From the NCBI RefSeq assembly GCF_900450705.1, contig NZ_UGHK01000002.1, positions 1,220,970 to 1,244,969 of the forward strand: DNA of 24,000 bases, read 5' to 3'. Source of the DNA: Avibacterium paragallinarum (GTDB lineage Bacteria > Pseudomonadota > Gammaproteobacteria > Enterobacterales > Pasteurellaceae). This document shows, in pieces, positions 14,631 to 16,397 of this stretch (positions within the stretch are counted from its first letter, which is position 1; each line of letters opens with the position of its first letter). The notes beneath the pieces were generated by a model that saw only the letters and a program-made list of their open reading frames with translations, was not told where the DNA came from and did not search any database. Position numbers and translations under genes: made by a program.

Positions 14631-14700
14631 TATAGTCGTTTGATTTCAAAATAATACGGCGTTACATCGCCTTGTCTTATTTTGAAATCAAACGACTATA
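14631..14700. repeat. 70-nt perfect long inverted repeat (24-bp arms, 22-nt spacer with a nested GGCG/CGCC stem)
   Basis: Left arm TATAGTCGTTTGATTTCAAAATAA (14631-14654). Right arm TTATTTTGAAATCAAACGACTATA (14677-14700), an exact reverse complement. The spacer TACGGCGTTACATCGCCTTGTC contains GGCG (14658-14661) and CGCC (14668-14671). Neither arm is followed by a T-tract. Confidence 0.9.
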
Positions 14701-14708
14701 CTATTCCT

Positions 14709-14900
14709 AAACATTATACTGAGTTTGACATCCTCCCCGCCCTAAAGGACGGGGATTCCTACTAGTGCCAATTGGCAAGCAATGGGCTACTCTCGGTGGG
14801 TTCTTGTTGCTGACCTCTCAATGAAGTTCACTTCACAAGCTATACGGGCATGTCCTGCCCTGACATTTTATTACGCGTGGACGATAGCTCGCCCACGCCC
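14709..14900 (-). ncRNA. Predicted TnpB omega-RNA (reRNA): scaffold from the tnpB 3' end and right end, plus about 16 nt of flank as guide. The 5' end is not determinable from sequence
   Basis: 146 nt of non-coding but visibly structured sequence lies between the tnpB stop (14871) and the predicted RE terminus (14725). On the minus strand this includes GGGCA..TGCCC, the palindrome GCCAATTGGC and the RE hairpin CCCCGTCCTTTAGGGCGGGG. In characterised IS200/IS605 TnpB systems the guide RNA is encoded exactly here and reads through the RE into the flank. Confidence 0.4.
14735..14754 (-). repeat. Right-end (RE) subterminal imperfect hairpin of the IS605-type element
   Basis: The plus strand reads CCCCGCCCTAAAGGACGGGG. 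The outer stem is 5 bp (CCCCG/CGGGG), with an inner CC/GG and a bulged base. Confidence 0.7.
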
Positions 14901-16007
14901 CAATACATTTAACGCTCCAACCACATCGGCATTTTCTGTGTAGCCACATTCTACACACTCAAAATTAGCCTGTGTTTGGCGATTTTCTTTTGCTACATGA
15001 CCACAACAAGGGCAAGTTCGACTCGTGTTTTGCGGTGGCACTGCCACTAAAAATCCACCTTGCCATTGCGTTTTGTAATCCAACTGACGGCGAAACTCAA
15101 ACCAAGATTGATCTAATATCGCTTGGTTCAACCCTGATTTTGCAGCAACATTTTTGCCTGGTGTTTCCGCCGTACCTTTGGCTGATTTTGACATATTTGA
15201 CACCTGCAAATCTTCAATATAGATCATGGCGTGGTTTTTGCTGATTTTGCTTGAAGTCTGATGCAAGAAGTCTTTGCGACAATTGGCAATTTTATGGTGC
15301 AGTTTGGCAATTTTCGCCTTTAATTTCTGCCAATTTTGGCTAAATTTTACTTTATTTTTAAGCCTCTTTTGCAGTTTAGCCAATTTTCCTTTGTAAGTTT
15401 TAAAGGCGTTAACCGGTTCAAAATATTCACCATTTGACAATGTTGCAAAACGTGCAACGCCCATATCAATACCGATTTCACCGCCTTTATGTGTCGGGAT
15501 TTCGTACTCAAATTCAGTTTGAATACTGACAAAATAGTGACCGCACTTTTGGCTGACGGTAACATTTTTGATTTCACCAACGATATCTCGGCTGTTGCGA
15601 TAGCGAATCCAGCCGATTTTTGGCAAAAATAAGCGGTCATTTTCCTGTTCTAATTTGCAACCTTGCGGAAAACGAAAGCTCTCTTTCACGCCTTTTTTCT
15701 TGAATTTTGGAAAGTCGGCACGTTTCTGAAAGAAATTTTTAAACGCACTTTCTAGGTCTTTTAAAGACTGTTGAAGCACTTGAGAATGGCATTCTTTTAG
15801 CCAAACTAATTCTTTTTTCCATTGTGGAAGCAAGTTGGCGATTTTAGTGTAACTGAACTTAAAGCTGTTATCTTGCTCGTATTGTTCATTTTGCCAAGCC
15901 AATGCCCGATTGAACACAAAACGAGAGCAACCGCAAAATTGCTTGATTTTACGGGTTTGTTCGCCATTCGGCATTATCTCGAACTTAAAGGTTTTGCGTA
16001 GTTGCAT
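14871..16007 (-). CDS. tnpB: TnpB (IS605 OrfB family) RNA-guided RuvC-like endonuclease, apparently intact, 378 aa
   Basis: The N-terminus 'MQLRKTFKFEIMPNGEQTRKIKQF' is typical of the family. RuvC-like acidic motifs are 'EIGIDMGV', 'MIYIEDLQV' and 'TENADVVGALNV'. The zinc finger reads 'CPCCGH...ECVECGY'. The ORF-track start at 16013 is a TTG; the first ATG is at 16007. Confidence 0.85.
   Translation of the reverse strand: MQLRKTFKFEIMPNGEQTRKIKQFCGCSRFVFNRALAWQNEQYEQDNSFKFSYTKIANLLPQWKKELVWLKECHSQVLQQSLKDLESAFKNFFQKRADFPKFKKKGVKESFRFPQGCKLEQENDRLFLPKIGWIRYRNSRDIVGEIKNVTVSQKCGHYFVSIQTEFEYEIPTHKGGEIGIDMGVARFATLSNGEYFEPVNAFKTYKGKLAKLQKRLKNKVKFSQNWQKLKAKIAKLHHKIANCRKDFLHQTSSKISKNHAMIYIEDLQVSNMSKSAKGTAETPGKNVAAKSGLNQAILDQSWFEFRRQLDYKTQWQGGFLVAVPPQNTSRTCPCCGHVAKENRQTQANFECVECGYTENADVVGALNVLGRGRAIVHA
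15540..15548 (-). repeat. Uptake signal sequence core (Hin-type USS) inside tnpB
   Basis: Exact ACCGCACTT on the plus strand, within the tnpB coding sequence. Confidence 0.85.
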
Positions 16008-16052
16008 TGACAAGGTTTAGAATGTAAGTTTTCCATATTTTACCCTTGGCCT

Positions 16053-16286
16053 ATGCAAAAAGAAACAGAAATTAGGCACGGTAGACATTGTGTTTTTAAT
16101 ATGCATGTTCACTTAGTCTTTGTAACAAAATCAAGCCGAATGATTAGGAAGAAAAACTACCCGAACATCCGCAAAAAACTTTGGGGTAATCAGCTGTGGT
16201 CTCCGTCTTATTTTGCGGGCTCTTGCGGTGGTGCACCTATTTCCATTATTCGCCAATACATTGAGCAACAACAAACACCTGATTAG
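16053..16286 (+). pseudogene. tnpA: IS200/IS605 Y1 (HUH) transposase TnpA remnant with an in-frame internal deletion (77 aa)
   Basis: 'MQKETEIRHGRHCVFNMHVHLVFVTK' is a family N-terminal strand. It is fused directly to 'SSRMIRKKNYPNIRKKLWGNQLWSPSYFAGSCGGAPISIIRQYIEQQQTPD', a family C-terminus. Full-length relatives are about 130-155 aa, so the central part is missing. Confidence 0.7.
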
Positions 16287-16324
16287 TTAGGTTTGAAACG
16301 GCTTACGCCGTTTGTGCCTTATAT

Positions 16325-16344
16325 CTCCGCCCTGAAGGACGGAG
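16325..16344 (-). repeat. Left-end (LE) subterminal imperfect hairpin of the IS605-type element
   Basis: The plus strand reads CTCCGCCCTGAAGGACGGAG. It differs from the RE hairpin at positions 2, 10 and 19. Positions 2 and 19 pair with each other and change C:G to T:A, which is compensatory. Confidence 0.7.
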
Positions 16345-16365
16345 TTTTACGGCACATAATCTGAT

Positions 16366-16397
16366 AAAAAAAGCGAATCAAAGGTGATTCGCTTTTT
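16366..16397 (-). terminator. Rho-independent terminator of the adhesin gene (bidirectional geometry)
   Basis: GCGAATCA (16373-16380) and TGATTCGC (16385-16392) form an 8-bp stem with a 4-nt loop. It is flanked by A7 (16366-16372) and T5 (16393-16397). On the minus strand it reads GCGAATCACCTTTGATTCGC-TTTTTTTAT, starting 20 nt after the adhesin stop. Confidence 0.85.

Follow-up and report, generated by a model that had tools for sequence, protein, structure and literature searches.

Related insertion sequences and the locus under study

In the insertion sequence IS608 of Helicobacter pylori, the left end (LE) is cleaved at TTAC, located 19 nt 5' of the left hairpin (IPL), and the right end (RE) at TCAA, located 10 nt 3' of the right hairpin (IPR), the left DNA guide (GL) being AAAG (PMC3201880). 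The right guide (GR) is GAAT, and the pairing of A+16 with T-3 and of A+17 with T-4 leaves G+19 opposite C-1 (PMC5934647). The spacings and tetranucleotides from which the original prediction for the present locus started are correct according to these two papers. Here, we analyze a 24,000-nt stretch of the Avibacterium paragallinarum genome (assembly GCF_900450705.1, contig NZ_UGHK01000002.1), hereafter called the window, in which the minus strand at 14725-16363 is an ordinary IS200/IS605-family insertion sequence, with a tnpB gene, a tnpA remnant, and the predicted scaffold of an omega-RNA.

The omega-RNA of ISDra2 (Deinococcus radiodurans) comprises a 116-nt scaffold with four stems and a pseudoknot formed via positions -5 to -3, together with a 16-nt guide, and its stem 4 is capped by UUUA at -20 to -17 (PMC10097598). 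Meers et al. (PMC10055086) reported that the transposon-adjacent motif (TAM) is common to TnpA and TnpB, that the donor joint is cleaved, and that the TAM of the ISGst2 TnpB (Geobacillus stearothermophilus) is TTTAT. IS1341-type tnpB genes have sense overlapping transcripts (sotRNAs) at their 3' end, and an RE-like tetraloop motif occurs in the HgcC family (PMC4615843).

The ends of the Avibacterium element resemble those of IS608. Hairpins lie near both ends, GAAT abuts the RE hairpin with TCAA ending 10 nt beyond its 3' side, a predicted 4-nt DNA guide lies directly against the LE hairpin with the target 19 nt upstream in the window copy, and insertion occurs 3' of the target without duplication, with a scarless donor joint. 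Unlike IS608, which combines TTAC with AAAG, the element combines TTAT (effectively TTTAT) with AAAA, its family has an LE spacer of 17-19 nt, and the tnpA gene of the window is internally deleted. IS608 carries tnpA and tnpB in the same direction, and in the window element they are divergent, which we take to be the IS605-type layout. The IS608 RE probably reads GAATCCCCTAGCTTTAGCTATGGGGAGTATGTCAA, a sequence on which nothing here is based.

Extent and ends of the element

The features that define the element, in window coordinates, are the following.

14725..16363, minus strand: entire IS200/IS605-family insertion of 1639 bp; in the empty-site alleles L001 and L003, 16364 is immediately followed by 14724
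16364..16368, minus strand: target and left cleavage site TTAT (16367-16364), with T16368 = TTTAT, the predicted TnpB TAM; kept in the flank and in the empty-site alleles
16290..16363, minus strand: left end, with spacer, GL, IPL, outer stem, and second small hairpin; from sequence and family conservation
14725..14758, minus strand: right end core, with GR GAAT (14758-14755), IPR hairpin (14754-14735), AGGATG, and cleavage site TCAA (14728-14725)
14705..14724, minus strand: predicted omega-RNA guide flank ACTCAGTATAATGTTT(AGGA), of which 16 nt = 14724-14709; position and length by analogy with ISDra2 (PMC10097598)

An exact look-up of the neighboring DsbD protein led to sister genomes, some carrying the insertion and others lacking it. 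In two empty alleles, L001 (GCA_054073505.1, which stands for 18 further similar places) and L003 (GCA_000969315.2), DsbD is directly followed by the adhesin gene, and the joint reads ...GATTCGCTTTTTTTAT|ACTCAGTATAATGTTTAGGAATAG, which equals the left flank plus the right flank with no base gained or lost. The rejoined empty site had been predicted as GATTCGCTTTTTTTAT|ACTCAGTATAATGTTTAGG, and these A. paragallinarum genomes match it to the letter. As no base is common to both sides, the junction is unambiguous; the element therefore spans 14725-16363 and lies 3' of TTAT, as had been proposed, without target duplication, in keeping with the scarless insertion of the IS200/IS605 family. Two further loci, L002 (99.4 % identical) and L055 (99.8 %), share this insertion, and the L004 contig ends one base into the right flank, where a repeat would be expected to interrupt the assembly. 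Among A. paragallinarum assemblies, GCA_000442905.1 and GCA_000348525.1 contain the element.

The LE hairpin (16344-16325) and the RE hairpin (14754-14735) are direct-orientation copies with 83 % identity, the arrangement of subterminal imperfect palindromes that IS200/IS605 elements have instead of terminal inverted repeats, and both are kept with compensatory changes across loci. Every base quoted in the original prediction is found at its minus-strand coordinate. Each end motif occurs once in the window, versus 0.00-0.02 occurrences expected, and the ends are built alike in other genomes, in about 45 RE and about 40 LE copies, so that chance is excluded. A scan of representative genomes yielded 49 loci from Pasteurellaceae, Kingella, Neisseria, Dichelobacter, and Pelistega. 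The family is highly abundant in A. paragallinarum and Gallibacterium anatis, where its protein is annotated as 'RNA-guided endonuclease InsQ/TnpB'; both genera are poultry pathogens.

At the right end, GGAAT abuts the hairpin CCCCGTCC-TTTA-GGGCGGGG (14754-14735), which is followed by AGGATGTCAA (14734-14725). The expected IS608 arrangement, with GAAT abutting the hairpin and TCAA at +7 to +10, is thus seen here, and about 45 copies agree: GTAGGAAT-hairpin-AGGA(T/C)GTCAA is kept, GGAAT-hairpin-AGGATGTCAA is retained, and similarity stops exactly after TCAA. The flank 3' of the RE reads ACTCAGTATAATGTTTAGGA (14724-14705) in the window, and no base preference at +1 appears among 41 distinct right flanks.

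At the left end, the 19-nt spacer CAGATTATGTGCCGTAAAA (16363-16345) includes the DNA guide GL AAAA (16348-16345) and leads into IPL, CTCCGTCC-TTCA-GGGCGGAG (16344-16325), with a second small hairpin at 16313-16296. When LE spacers were measured by a hairpin-anchored scan, the target-to-hairpin distance was 17 nt in 18 copies, 18 nt in 6, and 19 nt in 3, the window included. The 19-nt spacing given in the original prediction, therefore, holds for the window copy, but not as a fixed value of the family (mode 17, range 17-19). An outer 5-bp stem, GTGCC/GGCAC (16355-16351 with 16319-16315), encloses the DNA guide, the LE hairpin, and ATATAA. Relatives carry compensatory variants of this stem (GCGCC/GGCGC six times, CCGCC/GGCGG, and GCTCC/GGAGC), and we know of no description of such a stem for the IS608 LE.

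Target site and DNA guide

Of about 40 left ends, four follow TTAC and the others TTAT. Among 27 distinct left flanks, TTA at -4 to -2 is invariant; 25 have T and 2 have C at -1, and T stands at -5 in 26 flanks and at -6 in 19. An invariant T at -5 is ruled out by L054 (ATTAT) and L101 (CTTAT), the two exceptions in about 38 flanks; the family target is effectively TTTAT.

The geometry of the IS608 rule, under which 4-nt DNA guides 5' of each hairpin foot read the cleavage sites, is present. GAAT/TCAA is invariant in the family, AAAA accompanies TTAT in about 35 copies, and AAAG accompanies TTAC in two (L024, Kingella kingae, and L034, Ursidibacter). The proposed covariation relative to IS608 (C to T in the site, G to A in the guide) is only a tendency at -1 (nominal p ~0.02, hand-calculated and uncorrected for phylogeny). 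A strict rule linking GL to the left cleavage site (CL) is ruled out by exceptions in both directions, namely L023 (AAAG/TTAT), L025 (AACC/TTAT), L056 (AAAT/TTAC), and L057 (AAAA/TTAC).

Genes of the element

Two genes are carried by the element.

14871..16007, minus strand: tnpB, intact, 378 aa from ATG (380 aa from TTG at 16013); Pfam HTH_OrfB_IS605, OrfB_IS605, Cas12f1-like_TNB
16053..16286, plus strand: tnpA remnant, 77 aa, Y1 transposase; Pfam Y1_Tnp, 56.6 bits (cutoff 23), profile positions 75-121 only

The tnpB product is predicted to be an RNA-guided endonuclease. It is homologous over its full length to the ISDra2 TnpB (8H1J, 8EXA), with which it aligns end to end (E ~1e-51 to 3e-51), at about 37 % identity over the N-terminal 160 aa compared. 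The RuvC D/E/D motifs GIDMG (residue 181), YIEDL (265), and ENADV (360) are present, as are the zinc-finger motifs CPCC (334) and CVEC (353) with their four cysteines, so that the RuvC D-E-D triad and the CCCC zinc finger of an obligate mobile element-guided activity (OMEGA) TnpB are both found. The ratio of non-synonymous to synonymous substitution rates (dN/dS) is 0.09-0.13 versus five relatives and 0.05 versus a sixth. At a divergence of 5-15 % from these copies, a dN/dS of about 0.1 shows long-term purifying selection on TnpB. A domesticated nuclease-dead TnpB (TldR-like) is ruled out by the intact catalytic residues and by the position of the gene within a bounded mobile element. As for TAM-reading residues, ISDra2 TnpB reads the -2 A with Q80 and the -3 G with K76; in the present protein, the Q80 equivalent is kept and the K76 equivalent is Ser, and both fit the TTTAT predicted here rather than the TTGAT of ISDra2.

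The Y1 (HUH) TnpA gene of the IS200/IS605 family is present, and this copy is predicted to be inactive: compared with the 138-aa TnpA of L026, it has an in-frame 183-nt (61-aa) deletion, and the missing block includes the HUH motif DDHVHLL. The remnant retains the C-terminal helix with the catalytic Tyr. Within the same species, L054 encodes a 138-aa TnpA, and its LE and RE cores (spacer, DNA guide, hairpins, and cleavage site) are identical to those of the window. Elsewhere in the family, tnpA has other deletions or is absent, and only about 115-240 nt separate the LE from tnpB; the family, therefore, displays a series of independent losses of this gene. In the TTAC-flanked copy of Kingella kingae ATCC 23330 (L024, 2001-3140), tnpB has a premature stop just before the third RuvC motif (CVECGY*NNAD) and is a pseudogene.

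The predicted omega-RNA scaffold and its candidate guide

Downstream of tnpB, the predicted scaffold and its helices (all from RNAalifold) are located as follows.

14725..14866, minus strand: predicted omega-RNA scaffold, from helices with covariation; 5' limit uncertain, possibly up to 14927
14860-56/14850-46, minus strand: scaffold helix H2
14839-35/14807-03, minus strand: scaffold helix H3
14830-23/14817-11, minus strand: scaffold helix H4
14796-95/14759-58, minus strand: scaffold helix H5
14791-82/14772-64, minus strand: scaffold helix H6/7
14754-47/14742-36, minus strand: scaffold helix H8, which is the RE hairpin, with its UUUA loop at 14746-43

Covariation was analyzed in an alignment of 36 copies, over 230 nt ending at TCAA. 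In these copies, the 140-nt noncoding stretch between the tnpB stop and TCAA is conserved above the adjacent C-terminal coding sequence. RNAalifold returns five local helices and one 2-bp helix, with double-sided changes in 24 of the 39 pairs. The proportion of paired cells is 96.6 %, versus 82 % in shuffles and 36-49 % with partners slid, and double-sided changes fill 188 cells versus 54.5 in shuffles (none of 500 shuffles attains the observed value). The window copy has all of its scaffold helices intact. A conserved structured scaffold ending at the transposon boundary, as in OMEGA systems, is thus borne out by covariation.

Folding of 14709-14900 and comparison with covariance models had been suggested as a check. 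The single-sequence minimum free energy fold of this segment contains the same helices (z = -3.4), and the Rfam matches stay below the gathering scores. In a permissive search, the best match is HgcC (RF00062; 30.2 bits, E 4.2e-5, 14712-14831 minus, gathering score 50), and sot0042 (RF02656) is also found (18.7 bits, gathering score 88). At 30.2 bits versus 50, the HgcC assignment is rejected, and no Rfam family membership is claimed. Each match covers the RE hairpin together with the 3' AGGAxGUCA tail. The two families are linked to the 3' ends of IS1341/IS605 tnpB genes and, unlike the present element, are archaeal. Covariation, the sub-threshold HgcC and sot0042 matches, and an intact TnpB under purifying selection together support the omega-RNA reading of this region. 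The RE hairpin and its tail (14723-14758, minus strand) also give a sub-threshold Rfam match to CRISPR-DR9 (20.1 bits versus a gathering score of 45), which may be due to chance or may be an echo of the relationship between omega-RNA 3' ends and Cas12 repeats.

The architecture is close to that of the ISDra2 omega-RNA. A multi-stem scaffold lies between the tnpB 3' end and the RE, and the terminal hairpin just upstream of the predicted guide is capped by UUUA, here at -22 to -19; the scaffold is about 140 nt long, versus 116 nt in ISDra2. Positions -5 to -3 are likewise free for a pseudoknot, for which the partner here is a candidate: an invariant GAC in the H2 loop is 100 % pairable with the GUC at -5 to -3. 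As both are invariant, covariation cannot test this pairing, which is only compatible with the data. Two helices could close the scaffold, GAUGU 14927-23 with AUGUC 14731-27 (99.4 % paired) or AUGUC 14866-62 with GAUGU 14732-28 (83.4 %). Neither shows double-sided changes, and the 5' boundary of the RNA given above is, therefore, provisional.

In the empty-site alleles, TTTAT directly precedes the 14724-14705 stretch from which the guide would be taken. No separate promoter-like site for the candidate omega-RNA was found, which is compatible with processing of the tnpB mRNA and proves nothing. In Lonepinella koalarum (L021, L028, L030, and L045), tandem TCTGTCA heptamers in variable number separate the tnpB stop codon from the first helix of the predicted omega-RNA, and their copy number differs among copies of one genome (alignment A1, columns 127-153).

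Insertion context and derived copies

The window at 16368-16397 contains a perfect 13-bp stem with a 4-nt loop, between an A-run and a T-run, which is likely the intrinsic terminator of a gene for a 2037-aa YadA-type adhesin. The element is inserted exactly at the end of the T-tract (TTTTTTTAT), so that the terminator tail provides the target and predicted TAM; tnpB and the adhesin gene have the same orientation. On the other side, a 27-nt inverted repeat (14631-14700; 96 % complementary, 16-nt loop) starts 25 nt past the RE. It is also carried by the empty-site alleles (with one mismatch in L003) and is, therefore, host intergenic DNA. Lacking a T-run, it is not a canonical terminator, and it could limit read-through of the guide transcript.

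By description, the element, with its TTTAT flank, is comparable to ISGst2, an IS605-family element whose TnpA and TnpB (TnpB2) share a TTTAT TAM, although the ISGst2 data are experimental and those presented here come from sequence. The ISGst2 family includes tnpB-only non-autonomous copies and mini-elements akin to palindrome-associated transposable elements (PATEs), mobilized in trans. The analogues here are L054 (autonomous), the window copy (tnpA-dead), and the mini-element L012:238-498. The latter, found in Gallibacterium anatis, measures about 260 nt and consists solely of an LE (after TTTAT) and an RE (ending in TCAA); it is a PATE-like derivative that belongs to the present family and is not autonomous. 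A TTAC-flanked copy with the M-T-A version of the recognition (REC) motif described below (L057, 1-1142) adjoins a gene with a weak Terminase_6N (terminase) match on a short metagenomic contig; this neighbor suggests that phages may also carry the family.

Proposed cycle and alternative explanations

A transposition and homing cycle can be proposed by analogy with IS608, ISDra2, and ISGst2. The element probably integrated as single-stranded DNA directly after (T)TTAT, where the T-tract of the adhesin terminator ends. TnpA, supplied in trans by a full-length sibling, would bind both subterminal hairpins; GL (AAAA) would pair with TTAT and GR (GAAT) with TCAA, the top strand would be excised, and the donor would be resealed as TTTAT|ACTCAG.... 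The tnpB transcript would be processed into an omega-RNA ending in about 16 nt of flank (ACTCAGTATAATGTTT), and TnpB with this RNA would cut the resealed, TAM-bearing empty site, after which recombination with a sister copy would restore the element. The occupied site would be spared because GTCAA, and not TTTAT, precedes the target there. Use of the TAM, use of the guide, and cleavage of the rejoined site by TnpB would be expected from homology to ISDra2 and ISGst2. We consider it likely that the sequence is the right end of a 1639-bp IS200/IS605 element, inserted 3' of (T)TTAT, with an omega-RNA/TnpB homing cycle of this kind.

Several observations weigh against this reading, and a number of them would fit a fossil copy, with ends as described, that is an immobile relic whose TnpB and RNA are inactive and whose conservation reflects recent ancestry. 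With its HUH motif deleted and with its exact TnpB found at a single site (look-up of the 378-aa version; the 380-aa TTG-start version gave no match), the window copy may no longer be mobile. The TnpB of IS608, the element most similar at the ends, was inactive in the assay of Meers et al. (PMC10055086), so that TnpB activity cannot be assumed here. The related Kingella copy L024 has a premature stop, and most strains have the empty site (L001 and the places for which it stands). On the RNA side, no family was matched in an Rfam search at gathering thresholds, the two candidate closing helices are mutually exclusive and lack double-sided changes, and the existence of the omega-RNA, its 5' end, and its guide length are all inferred. 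The pairing rule between DNA guide and site is, moreover, broken by exceptions within the family. Nevertheless, the fossil explanation appears improbable: the tnpB reading frame is intact with its catalytic and zinc-finger residues, the dN/dS of about 0.1 versus copies 5-15 % diverged points to long-term selection on the protein, every scaffold helix is intact in the window copy, and a full-length TnpA with identical LE and RE cores exists in the species.

The covarying helices 3' of tnpB could also be single-stranded DNA structures of the top strand, used by TnpA, with no RNA scaffold involved. The excised top strand has the polarity of the tnpB transcript, so that G-T and G-U pairs cannot discriminate between the two, and H8 certainly doubles as the TnpA-binding hairpin. 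Against this, IS608 TnpA complexes are robust with RE oligonucleotides of 45-56 nt, one of them without sequence 5' of GR (PMC3201880), whereas H2-H7 are situated 30-135 nt upstream; the RNAs that match best in Rfam are tied to tnpB 3' ends, and the architecture resembles the solved ISDra2 omega-RNA. A DNA-only role of these helices is, thus, very improbable, and the omega-RNA scaffold remains the preferred reading. Within that reading, the chances are about even that the TAM read by TnpB differs from the TnpA target, being longer (TTTAT or more of the T-tract) or having another specificity at -1. The near-invariance of T at -5 and the frequent T at -6 (19/27 flanks) would agree with a longer motif, as would the 5-nt TAMs of ISGst2 (TTTAT) and ISDra2 (TTGAT), and a motif of the TnpB REC region, rather than the DNA guide, follows the division between TTAC and TTAT flanks. 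Conversely, Meers et al. found the same motif to be recognized by TnpA and TnpB, and two flanks have no T at -5 (L054 and L101).

The REC segment and TAM position -1

The REC segment in question, part of a helix, directly follows the equivalent of ISDra2 S56, a residue in contact with the -1 base of the TAM (residues ~55-60; window 15830-15850 region). It reads K-I-A-N-L-L in the TTAT-flanked copies with a readable motif, with the exception of L025 (LAN) and L058 (LTT), and K-(L/M)-T-A-L-L in each of the four copies with a TTAC flank (L024, L034, L056, and L057). On a tree from which the motif was left out, these four fall into at least three places. The association between motif and flank (Fisher p ~5e-5, hand-calculated and uncorrected for phylogeny) is stronger than the link between the flank and the last base of the DNA guide, a position that reads G, G, T, and A across the four copies with TTAC. 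A strict link between xTA and TTAC is ruled out by L113, which has MTA behind TTTAT, and a scan of metagenomes gave no further TTAC copies. The series suggests that the REC segment may be a compact determinant of TAM position -1. That the last TAM base switched from T to C at least three times, and that this switch tracks the REC change from I-A-N to L/M-T-A better than it tracks the TnpA guide base, is a tentative proposal that we regard as rather doubtful at present.

Significance

The element is of an already known kind, a well-behaved IS200/IS605 TnpB/omega-RNA member and not a new type of system. Its exact IS605-type termini, target site, and guide could be read from the raw sequence with the IS608 rules and then verified with population data. 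The Avibacterium/Gallibacterium family thereby gains a base-level annotation that covers its ends, the predicted TAM and omega-RNA scaffold, and the state of each gene. Apart from the TTAT/TTAC series, it is an expected instance of a well-described mechanism. This series and the REC motif are the only part with wider potential, as a possible small TAM-specificity determinant for the engineering of compact TnpB editors. If the proposal holds true, a natural three-residue code would govern the specificity of TnpB at TAM position -1, and this specificity, together with the LE guide, would shape where copies persist.

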